The notes under the pieces were generated by a model that was not told where the DNA came from, did no database searches, and saw only the letters and a list, made by a program, of their open reading frames with translations. A stretch of DNA of 64,000 nt, from assembly GCA_032161045.1 (NCBI GenBank), contig JAVHTH010000010.1; one strand, given 5' to 3'. Of the stretch, positions 15,715 through 61,926 are shown piece after piece (within the stretch, counting starts at the first letter, position 1; each line of letters begins with the position of its first letter). The translations under genes were made by a program, and so were the position numbers. The stretch is from Candidatus Fervidibacter sinensis (lineage in GTDB: Bacteria; Armatimonadota; Fervidibacteria; Fervidibacterales; Fervidibacteraceae).

Positions 15715-17784
15715 CTACCTCAGCCTTGCAATCGTCGTTCCTTGAATTTTCCTTCCTTCATCATCTTGTGCAATTACTCGGACTAAGTATGCACTCGTTG
15801 GCAACACCTCTCCATTGTTCCCCAGACCTTGCCACACAATTTGTTGTTGACCTGCCAAGCGATTCCTACCGCTCTCTAACACCGCTACCTTCCTTCCAGT
15901 CAAGGTCAAAACCTCAACTTGAGTTTGTGCTGGTTTAGTCAATGCAAACTGGATTGATATGCCCCTTCCCCGCATCGGTATCGCCTTCAATCCAACAATG
16001 CGCAAAGGTCGCTCATTGCCCAACTCAGCGATAACCTTGAACCGCCTCTCCGTCTCACCTTCATTCGGCACAAACCGATATTCTGTCTGAGTCCTCATGT
16101 ATCGCCTCGTCCCTGTCGCAAGGTCAACCAAAATCAAACTCACATCCTTTGGAACATGTCCAACTCCATTCCATATCATCGTAACTTCTTTTTGCCTCGT
16201 CCCTCGTCCCCCCTCCCTCGTCCCGAACTTCACAACCACATCCCAAACATGCTGCCTTGCTGCGTTGTTCCTAACATCAACTGCCAAAGGTGCACCATTG
16301 TTGAGCACCAAAACTTGCACATTGCTGCTTCCTTCAGGCGGTTCAGGTGGCAAACCGATTGTAAGTCCTCTTGAACCTTGTGAAACTCCCCAAATTGCCT
16401 CTCCACTCTCGTCACCAACTTTCGCCACCAACTTCACTGTCCATCCATTGCCTTTCACTACTCGTCCCGCGTCCCTCGTCCCCCGTCCCTTGCTTTGGCT
16501 TGGTGGTGGCAGTATAAGTTCGCAGTCGGTATGAGCATAGACCCAATAGCCCTTCCAAGGTTCAAGTTGCCCTTTAACTCCAGGAATGACGCTTGTATCG
16601 TAGACCAGAACATACTTTCCCTTAAACGGGTCATTTTCATCCTGCTCCCATCCCCAAGCGTAATCTTCAATCCAGCCTGCCTGCTGGGCTTGTGCCACAC
16701 TTAACGACTGTTCGCCCTTCCTCACACGAATTCCTTGGCTAATGTCCCAATTAATTGGTTGGGTGAAGGGATTGCTAATAAAATTCCATCCCTTTTGCAA
16801 GGGGATAATGACTTCTTCAGCAAGAGGTTCGCCTACAAGGCTGAAAGGAATCTCTTTGTCCGCCTTAAACCAGTAGCCCTTTCCTGGCTCAATAGCAGCT
16901 CCAACATCTCGGTAACCTTGAATTGAGGGATCCCAAACTTTCATTAGTAGACCATCTAAACCGAGTTCTTGTCGCGTTAAGGATTCCGTTCTTAGGCTTA
17001 AGCCAAATGTTCCGATGCCTTGAGCAAGGCAAGGGACAAACGGTGAGACAGTGAAACTACGCTCTTCACTGCCTTCACTCCATTGTTTCCCATCGTGGGC
17101 ATAAACTTGCCACTTATACTCACCAGCAGATAAGGCGTAGTTCCCTGAAATCCTGAAGTTCGCTATTTCTCCGCTACTGTAACTGAGTTTACTCCAACCA
17201 CTAGTGTCCTTAGTTTGATCAAATTCGTGTATGATTTGTCCATTTCGCTTGATGACTAATTTGTATTTAATAGGATCGCCATCATTGTCAGTTGCTACCA
17301 TTCGGAAAGTTGGAGTGCCGGAGGTCATTGAATCAGGGGCAGGGGAAACTAGTTGTGGAAGCAACGGCGCTTGGTTAACGGTTATCATTCTTGCATTACT
17401 TGCTTCGCTCCATTCTTTCCCGTCAAAGGCGTAAGCAAGCCACAAGTAAGTCCCCGCTGTTAACCTCTGATTTGATGGAACAACAAATGTCGCTTCTTCT
17501 CCACTTGCATACTCACTCTTATCCCAACCTGTCCCCTCTTGTGTTTGGTCAAATACAGCAACAATTTGGTCGCCTTGCTTGACCACTATCTTGAACTTCA
17601 AGTTGTCACTATCAGGATCTGTTGACTTGATTTTGAATGAAAGGGTAGGAGTGACAAAGGAATTGTTTTCTGGAGCAACAAGTTCAGGGGCATTTGGAAC
17701 TTGGTTGACAACGAAACTCCTTTCACTACTGAATTCACTCTCTTGCCCCCTTTCATCTACCGCCTTCGCTCGCCATGTGTCCAT
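15715..17784 (-). CDS. C-terminal portion of the giant S8 protease (separated by a frameshift)
   Basis: Continues the NQxPNxPEL...GxYxWxxxAxD repeat domain that begins in the upstream ORF. C-terminal FlgD-Ig/T9SS-sorting-like beta domain. Carries two GGGACGN modules. Confidence 0.7.
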   Translation of the reverse strand: MDTWRAKAVDERGQESEFSSERSFVVNQVPNAPELVAPENNSFVTPTLSFKIKSTDPDSDNLKFKIVVKQGDQIVAVFDQTQEGTGWDKSEYASGEEATFVVPSNQRLTAGTYLWLAYAFDGKEWSEASNARMITVNQAPLLPQLVSPAPDSMTSGTPTFRMVATDNDGDPIKYKLVIKRNGQIIHEFDQTKDTSGWSKLSYSSGEIANFRISGNYALSAGEYKWQVYAHDGKQWSEGSEERSFTVSPFVPCLAQGIGTFGLSLRTESLTRQELGLDGLLMKVWDPSIQGYRDVGAAIEPGKGYWFKADKEIPFSLVGEPLAEEVIIPLQKGWNFISNPFTQPINWDISQGIRVRKGEQSLSVAQAQQAGWIEDYAWGWEQDENDPFKGKYVLVYDTSVIPGVKGQLEPWKGYWVYAHTDCELILPPPSQSKGRGTRDAGRVVKGNGWTVKLVAKVGDESGEAIWGVSQGSRGLTIGLPPEPPEGSSNVQVLVLNNGAPLAVDVRNNAARQHVWDVVVKFGTREGGRGTRQKEVTMIWNGVGHVPKDVSLILVDLATGTRRYMRTQTEYRFVPNEGETERRFKVIAELGNERPLRIVGLKAIPMRGRGISIQFALTKPAQTQVEVLTLTGRKVAVLESGRNRLAGQQQIVWQGLGNNGEVLPTSAYLVRVIAQDDEGRKIQGTTIARLR
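16197..16225 (-). repeat. (GGGACGN)4 module in frame in the protease gene (sense strand)
   Basis: Reverse complement reads GGGACGA GGGAGGG GGGACGA GGGACGA. Translated GTREGGRGTR. Confidence 0.85.
16461..16489 (-). repeat. (GGGACGN)4 module in frame in the protease gene (sense strand)
   Basis: Reverse complement reads GGGACGG GGGACGA GGGACGC GGGACGA. Translated GRGTRDAGR. Confidence 0.9.
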
Positions 17785-20700
17785 TGCCCGCTTTCAAGAG
17801 GTTTATCAACTGTTACTGAAACATCCGTCCCACTATCAACAAAATCGGTTTCATAGGTCGCAGTCATATTCCCTTTCTTGACTTCAATTACCGCCTTTAC
17901 CTTATCGCCATCTGGATCACTTACTTTCACTGTAAAAGTAACTTGTGGTCTCACTATTGCTTCATCCGCAGGGGTCAAAAGTTCAGGGACATTTGGAACT
18001 TGCGTTACGGTTAAAGTGATAGGGGTAACTACCTGTGGCTTTTCTACATCATTGGAGTTGAACACGAGATTTGCTTTGTGGTTTCCAAGTCCGAGAGAAG
18101 TGGCATCTAAAGTTAATGCCAGATCCACTCCTTCGCCACCCAAAAGACTCCCTGCCAAAGGTGAGTGATCCAGCCAAGGAACACCCCTGATCACAGGAGC
18201 ATACCAGATGTCAGGGACTGCATCAAATGCACCAGCGGAAGAGTCCCAAAATTCACATGCGACATGAAAGTCAACCGGGTTACCGATATCAGAAAGTTTC
18301 ACTCCAACTTCAACGGCACCATTAACTGATTTGAACCAAACAAAGTCAGCCGCATAATCAAAGTTTCCTGTTGACGGATTATAACGATAAACTCCTATCG
18401 TTCCCATACCTCCAAAGAGAATATAGTCCACTCCCATACCGCTTCTCCATCCTACGCCTGTGGCAGCGTTGCGGTCAGTGTCAAGGAAGATGTCTAAGTA
18501 GGTATCATCTGGGTTGAATTCTCCTCCCTCTAATTCAGCACGGAAATAAAGGTAAGTTCCGTCGGATTGGAAGAAAACTTTGCGGATATTGCGGGCATTT
18601 CCATTGAATTCATCTGGGTCAACCATAATCCATCTCCAAGTTCCTGTTGGAGGTTGTCCGTTTTGTAGGGTAGTGATAGGTTTGCCATTTTTGAGCGGAA
18701 TAAGTTCAATGGATTGGTCGGTTTCGGAATTAGGAACAAATTGGAATGGTGCAATTTTTGTTTGTTTTATGGGACGGCTAACTGGTTGGGATGGTGGAGG
18801 AGTCTTAACAGCATTTTGGAAGAGTTGTGCAAGGCGCTTGCTATGAGGTGTGGGCTTGGACATCAACCTTTGGATAACCTGCTGCCATTCCTGCTGCTTT
18901 TTTGAGTCTGTAATTCCTTGTGATGGTCTGAGTGTCATGTTTTGGAAGGACAATGCTTTTTGCTCTCTTTTTTGTTTTGCACGCAAATACTCCTGATACA
19001 ATTTGGAGTTTTCAGGAACAACCATAACACGCCGATTTACAGGTTGGTGGCGAAGCGTTGATAGAGCCGATGTCGCCCCACGAGCGATGAATGTGAGAGA
19101 CCTACCACCAACATTGGAGACATTCATCGCAGTTGTTACCTTAGTGCCTTGGAGTAAAGTTTGCTCCACAAAAATGGGTGTTACAGAGATTTGAGGTCCA
19201 GGCTGTAAGGTCAAAACAATTTTGTAAGTGCAATCAGGACCACCTAAACTTCCCCAATCGCTTGGCATCACACGCAGGTAATATCTTCCAGTTCTTGGCA
19301 ATTGAATGTCAATGTAAGGATCCCATCCCCACCAACCTTGCGACCAAGCAAGTTGTTGTCCCTGCTCGTCATAGAGTGCCAATATAGCAATCAGAGGCGA
19401 ACCCTGTCTTTGAGCAATAACTTCCGCTGTTGCGAAATAACCAGCAGGACTGTCAAAAACAAAGTAATCCGAATCAAATTGAGGGTCAATAACTCCGTCA
19501 ACAGTTTGTCCACTGGCGATAGTTGTTGCGTTTTGAGGCCAATCGCTGTGATCATCCGGTGCATCCTTGACTATCGTTAGCATGTAATTCCCAGTAACAC
19601 CCCAAACATCTTCCACTTTCACATAGAAATCCCCGTCGTGAGGCAAGGGAAAGCGAACGATGCGAGGGTTGTTGCTCCACCATAGCCAATCTGGGAAGTT
19701 ATCATTGTATGCGAGCACTATCTGTCCATCACTGTCGTAGAGGGTCAAAGCAGGATTCTGCCACCATGGATCAAAGGCTTCTACCGAAATTGCCACATAA
19801 TCGCCCAATTGCCCACTGAACTTATAAAAGTCCAAATCATCTGGCGGATTGATCTCACCTAAAATGGTGTCACCATAAGCAATTTGAGTGGCTTGAGCGG
19901 GAGTGTCATTAGGTTCTTGTTCAGCAAGAGTTTTACGGAGGGAAAGGGTGTAAGTAAAATCTGGTCCGCCCACATTAGAACCACCATACGGTATTACCCG
20001 CAGGAAATAACGACCCGACTGGGTAATCTGGTAACTAATGTAGGAATCAAGCCCATAATAGTCATCGTTGAACGCAATGATATTGCCCTGCTCATCGTAA
20101 AGTGCAAGCATAGAGTCTAAAGGCGAGCCTTGCCTTTGGGCGAATACTTCAGCAATTATGAAATCGCCTTGTTCGGCGTAAAACGCAAAGTAATCTGTAT
20201 CGGGTGGTGGATTTATCGTGCCAGAAATGTTTTGTCCGTATGCAATGGGTGTGGCGGTTTGTGTCCAATCCCCATGGTCATCAGGGGAATCCTTGACGAG
20301 GGTGATTGTGTAAAAATGATTTTCGCTTCCACTACCTAAGTAATCTTCCACTTTAATGTAAAACGTCCCATCATGGGGAAGAGGAAAGCGAAGAACAGGA
20401 GACTCCCACCACTCATACCACCAGTAGTCCCAATCCGCATACCAGTCTACCACCAGCCTTGTTTGTCCATCGCTGTTATATAAAGTAACCACCGGATCCA
20501 TTGGGTAACCCAGTGACAAAGCACGAACCCTTATGGTCACTAAATCATCTTTTTGTCCATCAAACTTATAAAAGTCCACATCGCCTGGAACGAGTATCGT
20601 TCCCTGTTTTGATTCTCCATAAGTGATAGGTGTTGCTGTTGAAGGGTCATCATTAGGTTCTGTCGGATCTGCAAGAACTCGCACAGTTGCTGGGTCGCTT

Positions 20701-34919: not shown

Positions 34920-36131
34920 ATGCGTTGGAGGGGTTTTCCAGCAATCGCTACCTTTGTCGTCGTTGCTAACTTGACAATCTTGTGTGCGGCTCAAAAGAAA
35001 GTGTCCGAAGTTTCACCGAAGACGAGACAAGTCGTCAGCGCTTACAACGAATTTGGCTTTCGGGTTTTCAAGCGACTGGCGGCACCTGCTGCCCAGAACA
35101 ATGTCTTCATCGCTCCTTCCAGCATCGCAATTGCCCTGACGATCGCTTACAATGGTGCTGTGGGCGAAACCAAAAAAGCGATGGCGAAAGCGATGGGGCT
35201 TGAGGACATCTCTGACGAAGTTGTCAACAACGCGAACCTTGAACTTCGGCAACTTTTCGGGAAAATTGACCCCAAGACCGAACTCCTTGTAGCAAATGCC
35301 CTTTGGTTGCGAAAGGGTGTAAAGTTCCGCGAAGAATTCCTGACGCTGAGCCGCAAGTTCTTTGACGCTGAAATTAACCCGCTGACAACTGCAAAAGCCA
35401 TCAACGACTGGGTTGCCCAAAAGACGAAGGGGAAAATCAACCGCATTGTTGACAGAGTTGAGCCTTTTTGGGTTTGGGTCATCGCGAACGCCGTTTACTT
35501 CAAAGGTTTGTGGCAAAAGAAATTTGACAAACGACTGACCAAACCCGAGGATTTCCACCTGCCGACGGGCGAAAAAATCAAAGTGCCGATGATGAGCCAA
35601 TCTGGCAAGTTCCCTTATCTGCGAGGCGAAGGCTTTCAGGCTGTTTGTTTGCCTTACGGAGAAACAGGTCGGCTTAAGTTTTACCTTTTCGTGACCGACA
35701 AAGGCAAATCGCTGGCAGGTTTCTTGCAAATGTTGAACCAACAAAATTGGGAGCGATGGATTGCGAGTTTCCGAATGATGGACGGAGATGTCAAGATGCC
35801 GAGGTTCAAGATAGAGTATGGAGCAGTGAGCCTAAAGAGACCACTTACTGCTTTGGGGATGGGAATTGCGTTTGACCTGCGTCGTGCTGACTTCTCTAAA
35901 GCAAGCCCGATTGAGCCTAACCTCTACATTGAGGATGTCCTACACAAGGCTGTCGTTGAAGTCAACGAAGAGGGAACAGAAGCAGCGGGCGTCACCGCTA
36001 TATTTGGCGTTCCAGCAATTGGAGGTCCAATAGGGCGATTTACACTCGTTGCCGACCGCCCATTTTTCTTCGCCATTTGCGATTCTTTGACTGGGTTTGT
36101 GTTGTTTACGGGCATCGTGAATAAGCCATAA
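34920..36131 (+). CDS. Secreted serpin (serine protease inhibitor)
   Basis: SP(S)SIAIAL...NGA motif, FKGLWQKKF, inhibitory-type hinge EEGTEAAGVTA, C-terminal DRPFFF. N-terminal signal peptide. Confidence 0.85.
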   Translation: MRWRGFPAIATFVVVANLTILCAAQKKVSEVSPKTRQVVSAYNEFGFRVFKRLAAPAAQNNVFIAPSSIAIALTIAYNGAVGETKKAMAKAMGLEDISDEVVNNANLELRQLFGKIDPKTELLVANALWLRKGVKFREEFLTLSRKFFDAEINPLTTAKAINDWVAQKTKGKINRIVDRVEPFWVWVIANAVYFKGLWQKKFDKRLTKPEDFHLPTGEKIKVPMMSQSGKFPYLRGEGFQAVCLPYGETGRLKFYLFVTDKGKSLAGFLQMLNQQNWERWIASFRMMDGDVKMPRFKIEYGAVSLKRPLTALGMGIAFDLRRADFSKASPIEPNLYIEDVLHKAVVEVNEEGTEAAGVTAIFGVPAIGGPIGRFTLVADRPFFFAICDSLTGFVLFTGIVNKP

Positions 36132-36160: not shown

Positions 36161-36404
36161 AAAATAGGTGCGGAGTGCGGTGTGCGGAGTGCTGGGTTCT
36201 TCAGCAATTCGGCAAATGGGCAGGTCGGGTTAAAATGCACGCTTGCACTCCTGCAAGATTGCACGAAAAACGCGCAATGAATTTTTTCGGCTCACCAGAG
36301 GTTCGCCCTCCATGTGACTTCTACAAAGCCCAAATTTTCAATCTCGCACTTGAACATCCCCAAAAAATCTCCCGAAGCGCCAAACTTATTTGCGGTGTAA
36401 CGGG

Positions 36405-39400
36405 ATGAGGGAAACAATTCACGCTGTGGTAACTTTGGCTTTGACAGTTGCTGTTTTGATTTTCGCCAACTTCTGTGCGCGAGGTGAGGAAGAAATGGCT
36501 GCGTGGACGGCAAAGTGGATTTGGATTGGCGGAACACGGGATAAGGGACACGGGACGAGTGAGGATGGGTTGCCGAGAAATTTCTACCTTTGTGCCCGCA
36601 AGGTTTTTGATGTGCCAAAGGATTTGCAAGAGGCAATTTTGCGGATAACTGCCGATGCCCGTTATGTGCTTTTCGTCAATGGACAGCGCATTGGCAACGG
36701 TCCAATTCGTGGTTGGCAACATTCGTGGTTTTATGACACCTACGACTTGAAACCCCACTTGCGCCCCGGTGAGCGAAACGCTATCGGCGTTTTGGTTATC
36801 CAACCCGGCGAAACCAACTTCCAATACCCACTCGGTCGTGGTGGGTTGCTGGCGCAGTTGGATATGACCACGAAGCGAGGTCGCAAAATCACCGTCGCCA
36901 CCGACCGAACTTGGAAAGTCACTCCCCATCCCGCTTACGACCGACGGACACCACGAATTTCGTGTCAACAAGGGTTTGTGGAGCATTATGACGGGACGCG
37001 GGACGAGGGACGCGGGACGGAGGATTGGACAATGGCTGAGTTTGACGATAGCAAGTGGCAGAGGGCAGTTGAATTAGGTAAAGTCGGCATCGCACCTTGG
37101 AAAAAGTTAGTGCCACGCAACATACCGTTCTTGACAATGGAGCCAGTTTACCCTGTGCGAATTGTGCGAGTGCGAACGGTTGAGCCCCCAACCATCGTTC
37201 ACAGCATTGACCTTCGTCCCAACCTAAGCCCCGGTGACCGATTGTCCAACCCGCACGGCTTGACAGGCTTGGTGTTGACAGTTGTCCGTGCACCGAAACC
37301 GATGGAGGTTCGCGTGCGCGCTATAGGAGGCATCGGATTTGGTGCCCGCAGGGCAAAGGTCAACGGCGAAGACGCAACTTTTGATGAGCACGGCGCAATT
37401 CTGAAGTTGCGCAAGGGTGACAACTTGGTCGTCTTTGATGTGACGCGGGATTGGTATCACGATTGGTGGTTCACGACGGTTTGGGACGCGGGACGGGGGA
37501 CGAGGGACGGGTTAAAATTTGTCAATCCACTGGGGGAAGGTGAAACGGCGTGGGTGACGGCTGGTCCGTTTACTTCGCGCGATGACGAACTCTTCCAAGC
37601 AGTCTGGAACGCAAAATCTGTCACCGAAATTCGTGCCTTGCAGGCTAAATTCCGCACTCCGCACCCCATACTTCGCACAATCGCACTTGAGCATACTGCT
37701 TCCGACCATGTTTTTGCGAAAGTCGTGCTGGCGAAAGGGACGAAGGACGCGGGACGAGGGACGCGAGTTGAGAACTTGGAAGCGATTTGTCAGCCCAACG
37801 ATGAAGTTGCGGTCATTTATCCGCCACGAAAAGGCGATGTTGAGTTGCTTATTGACTTTGGGCGAGAACTCGTTGGATTTTGGGAATTTGAGGTTGATGC
37901 GCCTGCGGGGACAGTGCTTGATTTTTACGGCTTTGAAGCCATCCATCCAACCGATGACGGCGGTTTTGAAATCCAGCACACTTGGGGCTTGAACAATGTG
38001 ATGCGATACATCGCAAAGGAAGGTTGGCAGCGATACACAAGCATCGTTAGGCGTGGCTTCCGATACCTTGTGCTCACAATTCGGTTTGTAGGGGCGGGTG
38101 ATAACCCACCCGAAACTTACGGGCGGACTTCGTCCGCCCCTACAGGGCTATTTCAAAGGACAGGTGATGACCCGCCCGCAAAAACGGGCGAATTGGCATT
38201 CGCCCCTACGAAGTTGCGTCCCGTCCGCATCAAAACTTTGCGTTGCCTGTTGAACACTTACCCTTACACTGAGCGGGGCGAATTCATGTGCGACGATTGG
38301 AAACTCAACGAGATTTGGCGAATGTGCCGATACACGCTTCGGCTTTGCAGCGAGGACACTTTCGTTGACTGCCCAGCATACGAGCAAACTTTTTGGGTCG
38401 GCGATGCGCGAAACGAGGCACTCATCGCTTACGCGACTTATGGCGGTTACGAACTTGCAAGAAGGTGCTGGCTTTTGGCTGGTCAGTCTCTTTGGCGCTC
38501 GCCGCTTGTTGAAAGTCAAGTCCCAAGCGGTTGGCAAGACATCTTGACTGCATGGGCTTTGCTTTGGGTTTGGGCATGCGAGGAGTATTACCGCTATACA
38601 GGTGACGAGGGATTTTTGCGTGAGGTTTACCCGTTTGTTGCTCAGCAAATGCGCAACATCGCAGAAAAATTCATCCGACCCGACGGCTTATTTGAGATTG
38701 AAGCGTGGAATATGCTGGACTGGGCGCCAATGGACACGCCGCGAAAAGGCGTCGTCACACACCAAAATGCGATTCTCGTTGAAGCCTACAGGCGTGCTGC
38801 GACGATGGCACTTTGGTTGGGCAAGGGTGATGACGCAAAAGAGTTTGAGGCGTTGGCGCAAAAGGTTGAAGATGCAATCAATGAACACCTGTGGGATGAA
38901 CAACGGCAGGCTTTTATTGACGCCATCCACGCTGACGGTCGCCGAAGCCAAGTTTTCAGCGTCCAGACACAAACGATGGTTTACCTTTGCGATGCGGTGA
39001 CTGACGAACGCCGACCAATCATTCGCCAATACCTTTACGACAAGCCAGAAGGGTTCGTTTGGTTTGGAAGTCCGTTTGCGCTTTTCTTCCTGCTTGAAGC
39101 CTACGCAAAAGACGGCGAGTTTCAGCGCATCTTGGACATCATTCGGCGCGAGTGGGGTGCAATGATTGACTACGGCGCGACGACAGCGTGGGAAACTTTG
39201 ACGCCACGAACGAGAAGCCACTGCCACGCGTGGAGCGCAGCACCTGCTTACTTCTTGAGCACTTATGTGCTTGGCGTGAGACCAAAGGGCGTAACACGGG
39301 ACAAGGTGCAAGGGACACGGGTGATGGAATACTTCATTGCGCCAAAGCCTTGCGATTTGAAGTGGGCAAAAGGAAGATTCCCAACACCAAGCGGGACGCG

Positions 39401-39674
39401 GGACGAGGGGCATGGGACGAGAAGAGAAAAAGATTTTGCCGAGCCAAGAGAAATTGAGGTTCGTTGGGAGCGAGATGAGCGAAGGTTTACCCTTTGGTTT
39501 GCGTTGCCTAACGCTGTCAAGGCGGAAATTGTCTTACCACCTATCGTGCCTGAGGGCGCAATCGTTGATGTCAAACTTATCAAGGGCGAAGCGACTAAGC
39601 CGAAGTTTGAAGTTAACCATTGGCGCATCAGTGTGAGTGAAGGAACTCAGGGGAAAGTTGAGGCAAGTTGGTGA
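36405..39674 (+). CDS. GH78-like alpha-L-rhamnosidase family six-hairpin glycosidase carrying multiple in-frame repeat insertions
   Basis: AKWIWIGG N-terminal motif, FVDCPAYEQTFWVGDA and TTAWETL...HCHAWSAAP motifs. ATG at 36405 gives a signal peptide. Confidence 0.7.
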   Translation: MRETIHAVVTLALTVAVLIFANFCARGEEEMAAWTAKWIWIGGTRDKGHGTSEDGLPRNFYLCARKVFDVPKDLQEAILRITADARYVLFVNGQRIGNGPIRGWQHSWFYDTYDLKPHLRPGERNAIGVLVIQPGETNFQYPLGRGGLLAQLDMTTKRGRKITVATDRTWKVTPHPAYDRRTPRISCQQGFVEHYDGTRDEGRGTEDWTMAEFDDSKWQRAVELGKVGIAPWKKLVPRNIPFLTMEPVYPVRIVRVRTVEPPTIVHSIDLRPNLSPGDRLSNPHGLTGLVLTVVRAPKPMEVRVRAIGGIGFGARRAKVNGEDATFDEHGAILKLRKGDNLVVFDVTRDWYHDWWFTTVWDAGRGTRDGLKFVNPLGEGETAWVTAGPFTSRDDELFQAVWNAKSVTEIRALQAKFRTPHPILRTIALEHTASDHVFAKVVLAKGTKDAGRGTRVENLEAICQPNDEVAVIYPPRKGDVELLIDFGRELVGFWEFEVDAPAGTVLDFYGFEAIHPTDDGGFEIQHTWGLNNVMRYIAKEGWQRYTSIVRRGFRYLVLTIRFVGAGDNPPETYGRTSSAPTGLFQRTGDDPPAKTGELAFAPTKLRPVRIKTLRCLLNTYPYTERGEFMCDDWKLNEIWRMCRYTLRLCSEDTFVDCPAYEQTFWVGDARNEALIAYATYGGYELARRCWLLAGQSLWRSPLVESQVPSGWQDILTAWALLWVWACEEYYRYTGDEGFLREVYPFVAQQMRNIAEKFIRPDGLFEIEAWNMLDWAPMDTPRKGVVTHQNAILVEAYRRAATMALWLGKGDDAKEFEALAQKVEDAINEHLWDEQRQAFIDAIHADGRRSQVFSVQTQTMVYLCDAVTDERRPIIRQYLYDKPEGFVWFGSPFALFFLLEAYAKDGEFQRILDIIRREWGAMIDYGATTAWETLTPRTRSHCHAWSAAPAYFLSTYVLGVRPKGVTRDKVQGTRVMEYFIAPKPCDLKWAKGRFPTPSGTRDEGHGTRREKDFAEPREIEVRWERDERRFTLWFALPNAVKAEIVLPPIVPEGAIVDVKLIKGEATKPKFEVNHWRISVSEGTQGKVEASW
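36534..36558 (+). repeat. Decayed GGGACGN-heptad module (in register)
   Basis: GGAACAC GGGATAA GGGACAC GGGACGA. Translated GTRDKGHGTS. Confidence 0.6.
36993..37020 (+). repeat. Perfect (GGGACGN)4 module
   Basis: GGGACGC GGGACGA GGGACGC GGGACGG. Translated GTRDEGRGT. Confidence 0.9.
37483..37511 (+). repeat. Perfect (GGGACGN)4 module
   Basis: GGGACGC GGGACGG GGGACGA GGGACGG. Translated DAGRGTRDG. Confidence 0.9.
37737..37765 (+). repeat. (GGGACGN)4 module with one G-to-A change
   Basis: GGGACGA AGGACGC GGGACGA GGGACGC. Translated GTKDAGRGTR. Confidence 0.85.
38088..38209 (+). repeat. GTAG-headed REPIN-like element(s) lying in frame inside the GH78-like CDS
   Basis: GTAGGGGCGGGTG...GGGCGGAC-TTC-GTCCGCCCCTAC (38088-38143), then ...CGCCCG-caaaaa-CGGGCG and GGGCGAAT-TGGC-ATTCGCCCCTAC (to 38209). 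Translated FVGAGDNPPETYGRTSSAPTGLFQRTGDDPPAKTGELAFAPT. Confidence 0.8.
39298..39325 (+). repeat. Decayed GGGACGN-heptad module (in register)
   Basis: GGGACAA GGTGCAA GGGACAC GGGTGAT. Translated TRDKVQGTRV. Confidence 0.55.
39393..39419 (+). repeat. (GGGACGN)4 module with one altered unit
   Basis: GGGACGC GGGACGA GGGGCAT GGGACGA. Translated GTRDEGHGTR. Confidence 0.85.
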
Positions 39675-39685
39675 TGCAAGTATTC

Positions 39686-39709
39686 GGAGGGCTCGGCTCC
39701 TGCCGAGCC
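39686..39709 (+). repeat. Family-C element GGAGGGCTCGGCTCCTGCCGAGCC
   Basis: Starts 12 nt after the GH78-like stop codon. Confidence 0.7.
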
Positions 39710-39724
39710 GAAAATTGTTGTTTC

Positions 39725-39910
39725 GTAGGGTCGGGCTGCTGTCTGACCGAAAAAATTGGCTGAATGTAGGGCGCGGTTTTACACCGCGCCGAAAAATTTG
39801 TCGGCAGGGTATAAAACCCTGCCCTACAAGGGAAATTTGGCTCAATGTAGGGCGCGGTTTCACACCGCGCCGAAAAAATTTTGTCGGCAGGGTATAAAAT
39901 CCTGCCCTAC
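39725..39910 (+). repeat. Array of variant REPIN units (family A2), 81-nt period
   Basis: Full units at 39766-39827 and 39847-39910: GTAG+GGCGCGGT-loop-ACCGCGCC, linker GAAAAATTTGTC, GGCAGGGT-ATAAA-ACCCTGCC+CTAC. Partial unit at 39725-39765. Confidence 0.8.
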
Positions 39911-39967
39911 AGGTGACGGTTAAGGCGGAGGTTCCTGCAAGCGATTTTGACCCTACTGCGCTAACCT

Positions 39968-43487: not shown

Positions 43488-44651
43488 ATGCTGGAAGTCA
43501 GAAACCTGAGCATTAGGTTGGGCGAATTTGATTTGCGTGACATCTCGTTTGAGGTGCAAGATGGCGAATATTTCGTTTTGCTCGGACCGACAGGCACGGG
43601 CAAAACGGTTTTGATTGAGTGCATCGCTGGTTTACATCGCCCACGCACGGGGCGAATTATCCTTAATGGGCGCGATGTAACCAACTTACCACCAGAAGGG
43701 CGGGGCATCGCTTATGTGCCGCAAGATTATGCCCTTTTCCCGAACTTGACAGCCTTTGAGAACATCGCTTTCGGCTTGCGAGTTCGTAAATTGCCCAATG
43801 AGAAAGTTCGGGCAAAAGTTTTAGAACTTGCCGAATGGCTCGGCATCACTTACTTGCTTGACAGGTTACCTTTGACGCTCAGCGGTGGAGAGAAGCAGCG
43901 AGTTGCACTGGCACGAGCGCTGGCTGTTGAGCCGCAAATTTTGCTCCTTGATGAACCCCTTGCAGCCGTTGACGAGCAAACTCGTGATCGGCTTTGCCGA
44001 GAACTCAAAACCATTCAGCGACAAACTGGCGCAACTTTCTTGCATGTCTCCCACAACTTTGAAGAAACGCTGGCGGTCGCCGACCGAATAGGTGTGATGA
44101 ATTTCACGGAAGAGACGGAAAACAAGGGAAGCGGGTCAAAGTTGAGGGTTGGAAGGATGTTGCAGGTTGGAACGCCTGAAGAAATTTTCTACCGACCCGC
44201 AAACGAGTTTGTGGCTCGCTTTACGCGAGCGGAGAACATTTGGCGAGGCGAAGTGAAAGGACAAACTTCCGAATGGGTTCAAGTTTGGCTTAACGGTGCT
44301 GTGCTTTGGGTTCAAGTGCCAGAGGGACAACAAGTGCTCAAAAGCGAAGTGACCATCGTCGTGAGACCTGAACGAGTGCGCTTGTTGCCGACAAAGACGC
44401 ATCCGAGTGAGCAAATGAACTTGCTACACGGTGAAGTCATTGCAATGACGGACAAGGGAGCGATGTGGCGAGTTGAAGTTGCAACGGAAATCGGTGTCAA
44501 TGTGGTTGCTTTGCTTTCAAAGCGAGAAGCCGAACAAATTGGCTTGGTGCTGGGGCAATCTGTCGCCGTCGTTTTAGAACCATCCTTCATTCACCTTTGC
44601 CCGACAACTGAGGGAACTTTTGCTCAAACTGTGGGCGTTGCAAGCGAGTAG
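43488..44651 (+). CDS. ABC transporter ATP-binding protein with a TOBE-like C-terminal domain (CysA/ModC/PotA type)
   Basis: Walker A GPTGTGKT, signature LSGGEKQRV, Walker B LLLDEP, H-loop VSHN. No permease gene adjacent. Confidence 0.85.
   Translation: MLEVRNLSIRLGEFDLRDISFEVQDGEYFVLLGPTGTGKTVLIECIAGLHRPRTGRIILNGRDVTNLPPEGRGIAYVPQDYALFPNLTAFENIAFGLRVRKLPNEKVRAKVLELAEWLGITYLLDRLPLTLSGGEKQRVALARALAVEPQILLLDEPLAAVDEQTRDRLCRELKTIQRQTGATFLHVSHNFEETLAVADRIGVMNFTEETENKGSGSKLRVGRMLQVGTPEEIFYRPANEFVARFTRAENIWRGEVKGQTSEWVQVWLNGAVLWVQVPEGQQVLKSEVTIVVRPERVRLLPTKTHPSEQMNLLHGEVIAMTDKGAMWRVEVATEIGVNVVALLSKREAEQIGLVLGQSVAVVLEPSFIHLCPTTEGTFAQTVGVASE
44103..44150 (+). repeat. 48-nt insertion in the ABC ATPase containing a decayed GGGACGN module
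   Basis: GAGACGG AAAACAA GGGAAGC GGGTCAA matches a perfect module at 20/29 positions, and seven of the nine mismatches are G-to-A. It encodes FTEETENKGSGSKLRV between ...DRIGVMN and GRMLQVGTPEEI. Confidence 0.5.
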
Positions 44652-44736: not shown

Positions 44737-44756
44737 AGTTTGAAGGTGTATTGGTC

Positions 44757-45533
44757 ATGTCAAGGGCAATCACACTTGAAGTTGAAATCAAGGACGCCGA
44801 ACTTAGTCGCTACATAGAGGCGAATTTGGAACGGATTTTGCAATTGTTTTCGCCGAGACACATCATCGCTTTCGGTTCAAGGGTAAATGGGACGGCGAAG
44901 GAAGACAGCGATATTGACTTGATTGTCGTTTCCGATGTTTTTGAGGGTATGCCGTTTTTGGAGCGTGCGCGAAGGTTCAACGAGGCAATTTCATGGCATT
45001 TGAGGGTGGATGTTTGGTGTTTGACGGTGAAGGAGTTTGAGCGTTTGAGGAGGCAAATTGGAGTTGTTGCTGATGCTTGTCGGGAGGGAATTTGGATCTT
45101 GAAAGGGGAGTTGTTGCCTGACGAAGAGGTGAGTGGAGTTATGACGATTGAAGAGCAAGTGCAAGTATGGCTCAGGCAAGGCGAAAGGGAATTGGACAGG
45201 GCGAAGAGACTTTTCGCTCAAGATGACTTTGATGGTGCAGCCGTTTTTGCACAGCAGGCAGCGGAGAAGTTTTTGAAAGCCCTTTACATCGCTCGTTTCC
45301 AAGCAATGCCACCGCGAACCCACGACATTCAATTTCTGGCAATTGCTTTAGGTGCTCCCAGTGATTTGGCAGCGATTGGGAGACCGTTGACTGAAGACTA
45401 TTTTCGTGCTCGCTATCCCGATTTAGCAGGTGCTGCACCTTACGAGGTTTTTGATGCTGACATTGCGCAGGAGCGTATAAATCAAGCTGAACAAATTCGC
45501 AATTGGGTAAGGCAACAGTTAGAGCAACCGTAG
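44757..45533 (+). CDS. Fused nucleotidyltransferase (MNT)-HEPN domain protein
   Basis: N-half GSRVNGTAKEDSDIDLIVV (GS...DxD NTase motif). C-half HEPN with AAEKFLKALY...PRTHDIQFL. Confidence 0.75.
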   Translation: MSRAITLEVEIKDAELSRYIEANLERILQLFSPRHIIAFGSRVNGTAKEDSDIDLIVVSDVFEGMPFLERARRFNEAISWHLRVDVWCLTVKEFERLRRQIGVVADACREGIWILKGELLPDEEVSGVMTIEEQVQVWLRQGERELDRAKRLFAQDDFDGAAVFAQQAAEKFLKALYIARFQAMPPRTHDIQFLAIALGAPSDLAAIGRPLTEDYFRARYPDLAGAAPYEVFDADIAQERINQAEQIRNWVRQQLEQP

Positions 45534-61029: not shown

Positions 61030-61035
61030 TTGAAG

Positions 61036-61926
61036 ATGGCGGTACAAAGTTTGAGGGCAATTAGGCGCAAAATTCGGGCTGTGCGAAACTTGCAAAAAAT
61101 CATGACGGCGATGAAGATGGTGGCGGCGGCAAGATTGCGCCGCGTTCAAGACAGAGTGGTCGCCGGCAAACCTTATACCGAAAAGATGCGCTGGCTCGTT
61201 GAAACCCTTGCACCACATTTGCCCGCTATTGAACACCCGCTTTTGCAAGTTCGTCCCGTCCAAAAGCGAGGTTTGGTCGTAATCACAGGGGACAAAGGTT
61301 TGTGTGGGGCTTACAACAACAACATCATTCGCGCCGCTCAAAATTTCATGAGCCAAGATAGTGCGGCACCGTTTTTGCTTTACTGCATTGGACGAAAAGG
61401 TTACGACTTCTTCTCCCGTCGCGGCTATCAAGTCGCTCGCCATCGCCCTCAATTACCGGTCACCGCTTCCTTTGCACAGTTTAAAGCCGTCGCTGAAGAT
61501 ATTGTTCAATGGTTCACGAGCGGCGAGGTTGACGAAATTTTTGTCGCTTACGGAGAATTTGTGAACGCTTTAGTGCAGCGTCCCAAGATTATCCCGCTTC
61601 TGCCAATCAAAACGGACGGGACAGGGCATGAAGGACGGGGGACGAGAGAGACAGAGAGGGAATACATCTTTGAGCCGAAAGCGCCTGAACTGTTGGCGTT
61701 GTTGCTGCCGCGATATGTTGAGCATCTGGTTTACCACATTTTGCTTGAAAGCCTTGCCAGTGAGAACGCCGCCCGGATGAACGCGATGAGTCAAGCAGCC
61801 GATAACGCCGAGGAACTAATCAAGCAACTAACTTTGCAAGCCAACAAAATCCGTCAGTGGAACATCACGAAAGAGTTGCTTGAAATCACGACGGCTGTGG
61901 AAGCGATGAGACGGGCAAGAGATTGA
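61036..61926 (+). CDS. atpG: F1 ATP synthase subunit gamma
   Basis: MAVQSLRAIRRKIRAVRNLQKIMTAMKMVAAA N-terminus and NITKELLEI C-terminus. Confidence 0.95.
   Translation: MAVQSLRAIRRKIRAVRNLQKIMTAMKMVAAARLRRVQDRVVAGKPYTEKMRWLVETLAPHLPAIEHPLLQVRPVQKRGLVVITGDKGLCGAYNNNIIRAAQNFMSQDSAAPFLLYCIGRKGYDFFSRRGYQVARHRPQLPVTASFAQFKAVAEDIVQWFTSGEVDEIFVAYGEFVNALVQRPKIIPLLPIKTDGTGHEGRGTRETEREYIFEPKAPELLALLLPRYVEHLVYHILLESLASENAARMNAMSQAADNAEELIKQLTLQANKIRQWNITKELLEITTAVEAMRRARD
61618..61646 (+). repeat. Partly decayed GGGACGN-heptad module in frame in atpG
   Basis: GGGACAG GGCATGA AGGACGG GGGACGA. Translated GTGHEGRGTR, in the loop between LLPI and YIFEP. Confidence 0.65.

Follow-up and report, generated by a model that had tools for sequence, protein, structure and literature searches.

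The closest known class of repeats to the family described here is that of the four-unit, G-rich heptamers of Xanthomonas and Nostoc. These quadruplex-forming repeats, GGGAATC in Xanthomonas and GGGGA(C/T)T in Nostoc, were proposed to originate by slippage of the polymerase and were reported to be biased to non-coding DNA and depleted on the coding strand of ORFs (Rehm et al. 2015, PMC4692102). We analyzed a 64,000-nt stretch of DNA (hereafter, the window) from Candidatus Fervidibacter sinensis, a hot-spring bacterium, carrying repeats of the unit GGGACGN. Like their Xanthomonas and Nostoc counterparts, these are tandem heptamers with a run of three to four Gs, species-typical, dispersed in the genome and biased toward four units, and both the number and the sequence of the units vary among close relatives. 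Inverted pairs, another trait of the class, were seen in soil metagenome contigs. The preference for four units is pronounced: all nine strict arrays of at least three units in 260 kb have exactly four, and all nine are on the sense strand. Unlike the Xanthomonas and Nostoc heptamers, every GGGACGN array seen here is 27 nt long and lies within an ORF, on its coding strand and in frame; moreover, the host is a hyperthermophile in which they occupy conserved genes (ABC ATPase, ATP synthase gamma). There is no depletion: all 21 hits scoring at least 18/24 are coding-strand hits in long ORFs, representing 12 independent sites (distributed 8:2:2 among the frames), in a sample of 263 kb, which is not a genome and of which intergenic DNA makes up about one-tenth.

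The Rickettsia palindromic elements (RPE), said to have been described by Ogata and colleagues in 2000 as repeats inserted in frame in protein-coding genes, are about 100-150 nt long and palindromic (hairpin-forming) rather than tandem heptads. GGGACGN arrays resemble them in being dispersed in-ORF repeats that add a stop-free surface peptide to the products of housekeeping genes and later decay. They differ in their 27-nt size, single orientation and lack of an inverted repeat (minimum free energy, G-quadruplexes aside, about -1.4 kcal/mol); of the hallmarks of MITEs and RPEs, stop-free insertion in ORFs is present, whereas neither inverted termini nor target-site duplications were seen at the sites compared. 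The small dispersed repeats (SDR) of Nostoc, reportedly presented by Elhai and colleagues in Genome Research in 2008 as "very small mobile repeated elements" of 21-27 nt (work cited in PMC3116915), are cyanobacterial, mostly intergenic, and made of unique sequences rather than heptad arrays. They are said to have in common with the present family the 21-27 nt size, the lack of an encoded enzyme, the dispersion and a tie to tandem heptamer repeats. The literature searched contained no mention of the heptad, of the GTRDEGRGT peptide or of repeats in Fervidibacter.

Dispersed GGGACGN arrays

Matches to GGGACGNGGGACG with at most one mismatch number 19 against 0.18 expected, placing the family far above chance. 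The GGGACG core occurs at 10 sites in four genes of the window, the ABC ATPase site considered below and nine others. Six are on the + strand of a GH78-like ORF (36390-39674). Here, pattern matching identified two perfect (24/24) members, at 36993-37019 (frame 0, encoding GTRDEGRGT) and 37483-37509 (frame 1, (W)DAGRGTRDG), a 23/24 member at 37737-37763 (GTKDAGRGT) and a partly decayed one (19/24) at 36531-36557 (GTRDKGHGT). A decayed copy at 39291-39317 (VTRDKVQGT) is recognized through ortholog L225, which scores 24/24 on the same codons. The sixth member, at 39393-39419 (22/24; GTRDEGHGT), offers the cleanest comparison between an empty and a filled site: L223 reads CAT GGC GAA, while L224 reads CAT, then CAC CAT and the 27-nt module, then GGG GAA. 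Pattern matching also placed two members on the minus strand, which is the sense strand of ORF 15718-17793 (FlgD_ig / Ig-like), at 16198-16224 (23/24) and 16463-16489 (24/24; frame 2, KGRGTRDAGR). The last one is on the + strand of the ATP synthase gamma gene at 61618-61644 (20/24; GTGHEGRGT), in a variable loop preceding Y-I-F-E-P. The GH78 neighbourhood is common to L003 only. In L003 the copies have decayed at the ABC site as well as at each of the six GH78 sites; in the window, L225 and L226, most GH78 copies are intact.

Outside these genomes, 26 of the 31 exact hits in viral contigs have four units. Among the 120 metagenome loci listed, many are on high-GC contigs; there, strand cannot be called reliably from ORFs, and matches of three units are partly expected by chance. 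GGGACGN arrays are stop-free in all six frames, and every copy is read through.

Several features bear the signs of slippage. At one GH78 site, P0131 is longer by 7 aa (three units); L227 has six units; and some variants consist of identical units. Most likely, the family represents a simple-sequence repeat typical of its species, a G-rich heptamer of the Xanthomonas/Nostoc kind, whose arrays would arise and change through slippage-type gain, loss and homogenisation of units. Within genes, only frame-keeping versions would survive (27 nt, or others reached by frame-restoring steps), and only in the purine-rich, stop-free sense orientation. The sense-only bias could alternatively reflect purely protein-level tolerance or purine loading of the mRNA. 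Relative to module-less homologs, several GH78 sites show a net gain of just +2 to +5 aa; at such sites what looks like an insertion may sometimes be a replacement of loop sequence. A simple rule in which one seed unit is joined by three more, for a gain of 7 aa, fits the ABC site, which is 7 aa longer than in the sister lineages L069 and L071. We discarded this rule as a general one, the cleanest GH78 site having gained 27 nt and others +2 to +9 aa.

These same length differences bear on whether the arrays grew in place or whether a pre-formed 27-nt unit was copied in as a tiny mobile or copy-pasted element, by template switching, microhomology-mediated repair or conversion at a GGG glycine codon. 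Copying would account well for the sharply fixed count of four, for the recurrence of one core at 10 sites, housekeeping genes included, for the clustering of six copies in one gene, for the perfect copies on viral contigs, and for the exactly 27 extra nucleotides adjoining a Gly codon at 39393. Yet the modules are without terminal inverted repeats, target-site duplication or an associated enzyme, the gains at other sites are variable, and changes in unit number and identical-unit variants are typical of slippage. Furthermore, the bases at N positions are site-specific and common to orthologs, which disfavours frequent copying between sites. Altogether, we regard copying as possible but rather doubtful, and favour slippage-type growth.

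A hairpin extension in a ModC/WtpC-like ATPase

The gene at the ABC site (43488-44651, + strand) encodes a ModC/WtpC-like ABC-transporter ATPase, with a nucleotide-binding domain and a C-terminal TOBE domain, as judged from the ORF listing, Pfam, NCBIfam and PDB matches, orthologs and an AlphaFold2 (AF2) model. The ORF is bounded by 43455/43488 and 44651; translation probably starts at the ATG at 43488, which has a GGAGGA motif 8 nt before it. The product belongs to the ABC ATPase class by its match to PF00005 (ABC_tran; 122.6 bits for a cut-off of 25, E=2e-35) and has a TOBE_2 match of 29.2 bits (cut-off 21). Its top NCBIfam model, WtpC (NF040840), scores 366.9 bits, below the equivalog cut-off of 440, so the protein is not assigned to WtpC proper. 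The top solved structure, ModC 3d31, aligns end to end (E=9e-72). All catalytic motifs are intact and invariant among the aligned orthologs: Walker A GPTGTGKT, the LSGGEKQR signature, LLLDEP and the H-loop HVSHN. No permease or binding-protein gene was found adjoining the ATPase gene. In sister lineages, the gene conserved next to it encodes a class-V aminotransferase (cysteine-desulfurase-like); in the window this gene lies one gene further downstream.

The ATPase has the fold and the motifs of the ModC/WtpC/CysA/PotA-type importer ATPases with TOBE domains (3d31, 2onk, 1z47) but, unlike them, carries a 15-residue hairpin extension. A preliminary description of this DNA had pointed to a 16-residue insertion at 44103-44150, in a turn where only one or two residues normally separate VM from G. 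Re-reading the window confirmed the location and the sequence: the translation runs ...ADRIGVMN-FTEETENKGSGSKLRV-GRMLQVGTPEEIF, the 16-codon lineage-specific segment (44103-44150, + strand) being placed between DRIGVM and GRMLQVG, where it lengthens the beta-hairpin that follows the H-loop. It has a purine content of 72%. HMMER alignments leave this segment unaligned against 3d31, 2it1 and 1z47. Homologs devoid of the insert read VM-NA-G, IL-RD-G or VVM-D-G, as had been anticipated; since they keep one to two residues at the site, the net gain within the 16-codon span is 15 residues.

The insertion is genuine and clade-specific. It is present in 30 of 30 orthologs of the Fervidibacter lineage (72-99% identity), where 10-22 residues, mostly 16-18, separate VM from G, and is absent from homologs at about 50% identity and from L013, L014, L016, L017, L019 and L033. 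No insert of equal length was encountered in unrelated lineages among the homologs and structures compared. In the AF2 model (mean pLDDT 90.4) it lengthens the hairpin, with strands at 200-210 and 218-228 and the tip at 211-217; the block 211-220 has a pLDDT of 74 versus about 93 elsewhere.

Only part of the segment resembles heptads. The upstream stem, F-T-E (44103-44111, + strand), is matched in sister lineages L069, L070 and L071 by F-R-E, F-E-E or F-L-P, all without heptads, and the downstream stem, K-L-R-V (44139-44150, + strand; within strand 218-228 of the model), by R-R-I/V-G. In L069 and L071, which are syntenic, the hairpin is extended by eight residues, F-R-E-QGQ-RRI, again without heptads, and the flanks F-T-E and K/R-L-R-I/V resemble this extension. 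On this comparison, both stems belong to an older hairpin extension predating the module, and the module supplies just 9 of the 16 residues.

Ortholog evidence for a decayed array

The remaining 27 nt (44112-44138, + strand), GAGACGG AAAACAA GGGAAGC GGGTCA, encode ETENKGSGS. Relative to a four-unit array, 8 of the 24 defining bases are changed (six of them G>A) and two of the four G-runs are kept. The best register, starting at 44112 and reading GGGTCAA A at its end, matches 16 of 25 specified bases, with nine mismatches of which seven are G>A. The 20/29 match given in the preliminary description is arithmetically right and is this same figure with the four N positions scored as matches. By itself it does not stand above a shuffled background: dinucleotide shuffles of the window yield 5.4 +/- 2.8 positions at 16/25 or better, and four other real loci (13147, 14715, 30467 and 50708) score 16-17 while encoding nothing module-like. 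Shuffling the 54-nt insert alone gave p = 0.006 (mononucleotide) to 0.015 (dinucleotide). Taken by themselves, these numbers and the purine-rich composition would agree with a chance resemblance, in an ordinary purine-rich insertion of this lineage.

What decides the matter is the DNA of the orthologs. When 13 Fervidibacter-lineage sequences, those of the window and of 12 orthologs, are aligned by codon, the flanks match up unambiguously and without gaps in all but one, L012, which is one codon longer. In this alignment, 44112-44138 falls on the same nine codons as GGGACGG GGGACGG GGGACGA GGGACG of F. sacchari PD1 (L007), and the register found by pattern matching is the one defined by the orthologs. 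Mismatches to the 24 defining bases number 0 in L007 and L015, 1 in L006, L009 and L018, 3 in L011, 4 in L004, 5 in L005, 6 in L008 and L010, 7 in L003, 8 in the window and L001, and 11 in L012. A coincidence would leave unexplained why arrays with no or one mismatch sit on exactly these codons in the same register and why other species show intermediate states of 3-7 mismatches; moreover, no shuffle came near 24/24. A chance match is therefore very improbable, and it is the ortholog DNA that rules it out; the shuffle tests by themselves do not. Position 44112 begins a codon (frame 0) in the ORF of the + strand, so that the copy is in frame and on the sense strand, in a frame common to 8 of the 12 independent sites. 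Its score against a four-core 27-nt array (16/24) is not above background. The window copy would then be a heptad-family member by descent, through positional orthology to 24/24 copies, and the case for the module rests on the ortholog alignment. An assembly or sequencing artefact was dismissed: the array occupies these codons in the chromosome of an isolate (NZ_CP130454.1) as well as in metagenome-assembled genomes from independent studies, with lineage-specific variants.

The claim that the insert contains a decayed module therefore stands for its nine central codons and not for its whole length, and the insert-then-decay history put forward for it is borne out by the intact arrays on the same codons in L007, L015 and others. 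Of the orthologs in a neighbor-joining (NJ) tree, P0029 branches off earliest, and it retains a heptad array at the site, (GGGACAA)x3 TGGGCAA GGGAAAC GGCTCAA. Another early-branching ortholog, P0030/L070, has a short loop without heptads, which reflects either a deletion of the array or an error in the NJ branching order. The phylogenetic distribution suggests that the Fervidibacter clade inherited the array from its common ancestor, in which it occupied the Gly-containing tip of the older 8-residue extension, although it may possibly have originated later, inside an already long loop. In the lineage of the window, eight substitutions (six G>A) would have removed two of the four G-runs and converted GTGDEGRGT to ETENKGSGS. 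The copy would have lost any activity at the nucleic acid level and would survive as the tolerated, solvent-exposed tip of a hairpin in an otherwise intact ATPase.

Rates of change at the site are consistent with such a fate. In sister pairs of decayed copies, module identity is 0.78, 0.70 and 0.74, compared to 0.67, 0.80 and 0.78 at four-fold sites elsewhere in the gene, suggesting that decayed copies drift near the neutral rate. This bears on a further possibility, that the hairpin is a partner-binding or regulatory loop selected for its amino acids, its heptad origin being irrelevant to its upkeep. In keeping with a protein function, every Fervidibacter ortholog has kept the insert, mostly within the narrow range of lengths noted above, the stem residues (F-x-E, R-L-R-I) are well conserved and predicted to form strands, and a shorter extension already existed in the sister lineages. 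The nine module residues, however, vary freely (GTGDEGRGT, ETENKGSGS, EEAGHKGKR, EVEKLGREE and others), and in sister pairs they are replaced about as fast as synonymous sites change; indels of two to three residues are tolerated (P0008, P0017); and the tip is the part of the nucleotide-binding domain modelled with the lowest confidence. The decayed inserts of the window and L001 are perfectly identical, and here we rejected constraint as the cause because the gene is a mosaic in which a recombined, almost identical tract of about 450 nt spans the insert. Selection on the amino acids of the tip thus appears improbable, while the hairpin stem may well be functional.

In conclusion, the best explanation is that the ABC site is a lineage-specific hairpin extension harbouring a decayed four-unit array, now a relic, of a slippage-type, G-rich heptamer simple-sequence repeat. 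We assign this reading a probability of roughly 85%.

Intact copies and their upkeep

Decay is lineage-specific rather than general: intact copies persist at the ABC site in genomes whose other synonymous sites are saturated. Between L007 and either L006 or L009, the module is identical at 24 of 27 positions, compared to 0.74-0.75 for the rest of the gene. In the same comparisons, third codon positions agree at 7-8 of 9 sites in the module, compared to fractions of 0.42 for the flanks and 0.50 for the remaining gene, and four-fold identity is 0.70 in the module versus a mean of 0.46 elsewhere. The synonymous excess is borderline, as 20 of the gene's 360 nine-codon windows score as high or higher and the sequences are phylogenetically non-independent. 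Recent recombination as the source of the alike intact copies in distant lineages was rejected, given that the flanking 10 codons have diverged like the remainder of the gene.

Substitutions are unevenly spread within the unit. Mismatches at heptad positions 1 to 6 number 13, 15, 8, 24, 13 and 41, so that the G-runs change least; G>A at position 6 accounts for 39 of the 114 changes and is recurrent. Some variants are altered in the loop only, namely GGGACAN in all four units (L004) and GGGGCNN (L010). ViennaRNA predicts that the intact copies form a G-quadruplex at 37 C (-9 to -13 kcal/mol); for the window copy it predicts none. At 60-80 C, in what is a crude model, the intact copies are unfolded. 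A passage of PMC11535203 gives the growth range of F. sacchari as 65-87.5 C. A G-quadruplex at growth temperature is unsupported because ViennaRNA gives no folding at 60-80 C.

In the most likely scheme, the four G-runs of intact arrays would be held by a constraint at the nucleotide level, G-quadruplex-type or otherwise dependent on G-runs, and once one G-run is lost, the remaining array would drift at about the neutral rate. The stronger proposition, that (GGGACGN)4 arrays, where intact, function as elements at the nucleic-acid level and are kept within coding sequence by selection at synonymous sites, across divergences that have saturated such sites elsewhere, we consider speculative and unlikely. 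Intact copies might instead be kept by homogenisation, through conversion within an array or between copies, without selection; a copy would decay only once its divergence puts it beyond the reach of conversion, and the window copy would be one such escapee; this takes 27-nt repeats to be near the minimal length for homologous recombination. The bimodal behaviour of the copies, either frozen or neutral, would be explained in this way, and so would the concerted unit variants (those of L004 and L010, and (GGGACAA)x3 in L227) and the lineage-wide patterns, such as the decay at all sites in L003 set beside the mostly intact GH78 copies of the window, L225 and L226. However, N-position patterns vary from site to site within a genome and agree among the orthologs of a given site, which is not what frequent conversion between copies would produce. 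Conversion has not extended into the flanks, and the recurrent G>A change at position 6 can also be explained as a CpG-type mutational hotspot. Homogenisation is, in our estimate, somewhat doubtful too.

Were the arrays selected elements, they would be four-G-run structures in the mRNA or the non-template strand, maybe modulating translation pausing, mRNA stability or transcription. The window ATPase copy would be a natural loss-of-element allele, and pairs of intact and decayed orthologs (L007/L008, L009/L010 and the window/L007) would constitute ready-made experiments.

At the ABC locus itself the implication is modest, the insert being probably a neutral relic in a functional ATPase. More generally, the four-unit G-rich heptamers known in bacteria were reported to stay off the coding strand. 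Here, repeats of this kind are read in frame as part of the coding strand in a hyperthermophile, and the genes that carry them are ordinary or even universal ones (those for the ABC ATPase, ATP synthase gamma and the GH78 glycosidase). The recurrent nine-residue loops of the GTRDEGRGT kind will mislead both sequence alignment and structure modelling for Fervidibacter enzymes, which are of biotechnological interest; at the same time, the arrays flag surface loops that tolerate insertions. Orthologous sites allow the arrays to be dated, and the coexistence of frozen and decaying copies at such sites makes it possible to tell constraint on the nucleotides from constraint on the protein. The system thereby lets the relevance of G-runs and G-quadruplexes in mRNAs be tested at 65-87 C.

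The insertion in the ABC ATPase and the age of its hairpin

The insert at positions 44103-44150 lies within a plus-strand ABC-transporter ATPase gene with a C-terminal TOBE domain (likely 43488..44651 in the ORF listing). The product matches Pfam ABC_tran (E=2e-35) and TOBE/TOBE_2, and its catalytic motifs are all intact. The best NCBIfam model is WtpC (366.9 bits, under the 440-bit equivalog cut-off) and the closest solved structure is 3d31, a ModC subunit (E=9e-72). No permease or binding-protein gene adjoins the ATPase gene in the window. A fused nucleotidyltransferase-HEPN gene (MNT/HEPN toxin-antitoxin-like; 44751-45533) separates it from a class-V aminotransferase gene; in two syntenic sister Armatimonadota lineages (L069 and L071), the aminotransferase gene directly adjoins the ATPase gene downstream.

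Around the insert the protein reads ...HVSHNFEETLAVADRIGVMN-FTEETENKGSGSKLRV-GRMLQVGTPEEIF. HMMER alignments to 3d31, 2it1 and 1z47 leave 15 query residues unpartnered, and insert-less homologs have a short turn at this site (VM-NA-G, IL-RD-G or VVM-D-G). The protein context thus bears out the preliminary description, which had proposed a true insertion; the net gain is 15 residues inside the 16-codon span. Protein searches assign the gene to the Fervidibacter lineage of the Armatimonadota (names on the matches include Candidatus Fervidibacteria bacterium, Fervidibacter sacchari and bacterium HR17). An insert is present at this site in 30/30 orthologs of 72-99% identity, many of which read EGTGDEGRGTRLRIG, the translation of a perfect array, and is missing from homologs of about 50% identity.

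In an AlphaFold2 model from a 50-sequence alignment (mean pLDDT 90.4, pTM 0.86), the insert is predicted to lengthen a conserved beta-hairpin, with strands at residues 200-210 (RIGVMNFTEET) and 218-228 (KLRVGRMLQVG) and the tip at 211-217 (ENKGSGS). The module remnant (residues 209-217) forms this tip. Solvent exposure of the loop, a question raised along with the insertion, is suggested by the protruding hairpin and by the lower confidence of the 211-220 block (pLDDT 74 vs about 93 in adjoining blocks).

In a neighbor-joining tree computed after dropping the loop columns, the insert-less homologs fall outside a group made up of the Fervidibacter clade and its Armatimonadota sister clade (P0034, P0036). 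In the sister clade the extension is only 8 residues long (F-R-E-QGQ-RRI or F-L-P-DGN-RRV) and the DNA at the site is free of heptads, which makes the array younger than the hairpin stems (F-T-E and K/R-L-R-I/V). The module does lie inside the 16-residue insert, as first described, but only 9 of the 16 residues derive from it. In the earliest-branching Fervidibacter ortholog, P0029, the DNA (locus L227, near 840-900) carries a six-unit variant array, (GGGACAA)x3 TGGGCAA GGGAAAC GGCTCAA, which indicates that the array probably predates the Fervidibacter clade. Its three identical GGGACAA units point to a recent duplication of units, or to their homogenisation, inside this array. Deeper lineages (P0022, P0024, P0026, P0028) have kept the length of the loop and not its sequence. 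P0030 (locus L070) has a short loop without heptads, reflecting either a secondary deletion or an uncertain branching order.

Descent and decay of the window copy

The module is a 27-nt array, (GGGACGN)3GGGACG, with 24 defining bases. The count originally reported, 20/29 with seven of nine mismatches being G>A, is correct for the best register, which starts at 44112 (16/25 specified bases). Taken alone, this similarity counts for little as evidence. In dinucleotide-shuffled versions of the window, 5.4 +/- 2.8 positions reach 16/25, and four further loci of the unshuffled window (13147, 14715, 30467, 50708), whose translations are unlike the module, score 16-17/25; a shuffle restricted to the 54-nt insert gives p = 0.006-0.015. 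Judged against the shuffled background, as first proposed, the case would be borderline. For the family as a whole, found by Tandem Repeats Finder and pattern search, a two-unit probe at one mismatch or fewer gives 19 window matches vs 0.18 expected.

The genome scan yielded DNA from 12 full-length orthologs (L001-L012) and two short fragments (L015, L018). In the codon alignment, window positions 44112-44138 (GAG ACG GAA AAC AAG GGA AGC GGG TCA) fall exactly on the nine codons taken up by the intact arrays of other loci. In L007, the chromosome of F. sacchari PD1, these codons read GGG ACG GGG GAC GGG GGA CGA GGG ACG, without a mismatch to the 24 defining bases; near-identical arrays are found in L015 (0/24) and in L006, L009 and L018 (one mismatch each). 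Intermediate states occur in L011, L004, L005, L008, L010 and L003 (3, 4, 5, 6, 6 and 7 mismatches, respectively), while decayed ones occur in the window and L001 (8 each) and in L012 (11). Since the pattern-matching register in the window is also the one defined by the orthologs, the segment is, on this alignment, a decayed module by descent. Six of the eight changes in the window copy are G>A; two of its four G-runs are lost and the purine-rich strand is kept. The ortholog DNA thus supports the proposed insert-then-decay history, with the amendment that decay is lineage-specific.

Relative to L001, the closest genome match, the ABC gene is a mosaic, about 99% identical over nt 460-915 and 63-80% in the 5' third, which indicates probable recombination between Fervidibacter lineages. 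The two inserts are identical (54/54) because of this tract (alignment positions 460-915).

The module family within and outside Fervidibacter

Across 263 kb of Fervidibacter-lineage DNA, all 21 matches at 18/24 or better (12 independent sites, frames 8:2:2) lie on the sense strand of long ORFs. All three frames encode phases of one peptide, (GTxDxGR)n, because the translational period of the heptad repeat is 21 nt, or 7 residues; none of the six frames of the array contains a stop codon. Strict arrays of three or more units all have exactly four units (27 nt).

Nine further copies are present in the window. A GH78-like gene (36390-39674; 3.3 kb, 1094 aa) holds six of the ten window copies, and a minus-strand gene for an Ig-like/FlgD_ig protein holds two. 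The remaining one (61618-61644; 20/24, GTGHEGRGT) is in frame in the ATP synthase gamma gene (61030-61923), a universal housekeeping gene, in the variable loop that precedes Y-I-F-E-P; this loop is 6 residues shorter in the solved gamma subunits of two bacilli (PDB 2qe7, 5ik2).

Modules are present in some GH78 orthologs and absent in others. At the cleanest site, 39393, L223 reads CAT GGC GAA and L224 reads CAT [CAC CAT][GGG ACA CGG GAC AGG GGG CAA GGG ACA] GGG GAA, that is, exactly 27 nt more adjoining a Gly codon; comparison of this filled and empty site reveals no target duplication. Length differences at the other GH78 sites range from +2 to +9 residues, and protein P0131 is longer by 7 residues (three extra units) at the first site. 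Array states can be lineage-wide: L003 is decayed at the ABC site and at six of six GH78 sites, and in the window, L225 and L226 most of the GH78 copies are intact.

The window also contains other repeats. Intergenic tandem arrays at 283-545 (64-nt unit, x4.1) and 39752-39911 (81-nt unit, x2; also 39680-39750) carry short GC-rich hairpins, such as GGGCGCGGTTTCACACCGCGCC and GGCAGGGTATAAAACCCTGCC, each between TGTAGGG and an A-run, and resemble repeats of the REP or terminator type. The spacer between a serpin-like ORF (34920-36131) and the GH78-like ORF has a heptad of another sequence, GTGCGGA (x3.6; 36168-36192), with a hairpin, GGGCGAGGCTCCCGCCGAGCC, just upstream.

In IMG/VR, 31 contigs carry exact four-unit arrays. 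Among them, seven short contigs classified as viral (L072, L076, L079, L092, L093, L097, L099) share one 132-codon ORF that contains a perfect module (S[KE]DGTRDGGRGTKEVT), and may represent a virus or mobile element that also has the repeat. Metagenome contigs with three-unit arrays number at least 120 and cover many habitats; some of these arrays lie in frame within conserved genes, and others form inverted pairs. For the high-GC contigs neither the calling of strands nor the number expected by chance is reliable, and they were left out of the statistics. In high-GC soil contigs, GGGACGN pairs are inverted 25-100 nt apart (L136 1206-1269, L174 657-720, L120 5928-6057, L138, L142, L193), and long hairpins are possible there.

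Drift of broken copies and maintenance of intact ones

In the three sister pairs with one decayed member, module identity was 0.78, 0.70 and 0.74 (L007/L008, L009/L010 and L004/L006), compared with 0.67, 0.80 and 0.78 at four-fold sites elsewhere in the gene. Given this similarity, broken copies drift roughly neutrally, with little constraint on the encoded peptide. Between distant array-bearing lineages (L007 vs L006 or L009), the module is identical at 24/27 positions and the gene at 0.74-0.75; at third codon positions the values are 7-8/9 for the module, 0.42 for the flanking 20 codons and 0.50 for the rest of the gene. Recent recombination was ruled out as the source of this likeness, since divergence in the flanks is normal. 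When all pairs are taken together, the module has a four-fold identity of 0.70 vs a mean of 0.46 elsewhere, a borderline excess (20/360 windows are as high or higher). As judged by sequence comparison, intact copies were shown to be conserved at the nucleotide level.

Changes pooled from the ABC site and six GH78 sites (descriptive counts, as the sequences share ancestry) number 13, 15, 8, 24, 13 and 41 at heptad positions 1-6, the G-run positions changing least. The commonest, position-6 G>A (ACG to ACA, CpG to CpA; 39/114), often affects several units per array; a mutational hotspot of the CpG type or a subfamily with GGGACAN units could account for it. Position-4 A>G is second (23) and extends the G-run. 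The L004 (GGGACAN x4) and L010 (GGGGCNN) variants have changes in loops only.

An obvious candidate for what holds the four G-runs of intact copies would be a G-quadruplex. At 37 C, intact copies are predicted by ViennaRNA to form such a structure (-9 to -13 kcal/mol), and the window copy is not. At 60-80 C the same model predicts intact copies to be unfolded, and the growth range of F. sacchari is 65-87.5 C (PMC11535203). Homogenisation via conversion is a serious alternative explanation for the upkeep of the G-runs; N positions are particular to each site and common to its orthologs, which argues against frequent copying between sites.

Rickettsia palindromic elements show similar in-frame, tolerated-loop behaviour, yet are long palindromes, and Nostoc small dispersed repeats reportedly fall in the same size range (21-27 nt). 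The closest described class is that of the G-rich heptamer repeats GGGAATC of Xanthomonas and GGGGA(C/T)T of Nostoc (Rehm et al. 2015, PMC4692102), for which inverted repeats and stem-loop formation were discussed. Our literature search, of incomplete coverage and hence absence of evidence only, found nothing on this heptad, its peptide or Fervidibacter repeats.

Altogether, the arrays are tandem heptads of fixed four-unit size, placed in frame on the sense strand, with changes in unit number and concerted unit variants. Window genes have a strong G>C skew on the sense strand, and purine loading is established for thermophile mRNAs. The family would be a simple-sequence repeat with a G-rich heptamer as its unit; its arrays would change through slippage-type events and, within genes, are probably filtered to frame-preserving, stop-free, purine-rich orientations. 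The window locus has lost its defining G-runs and is an ordinary neutral relic, independently of what maintains the G-runs of intact copies.
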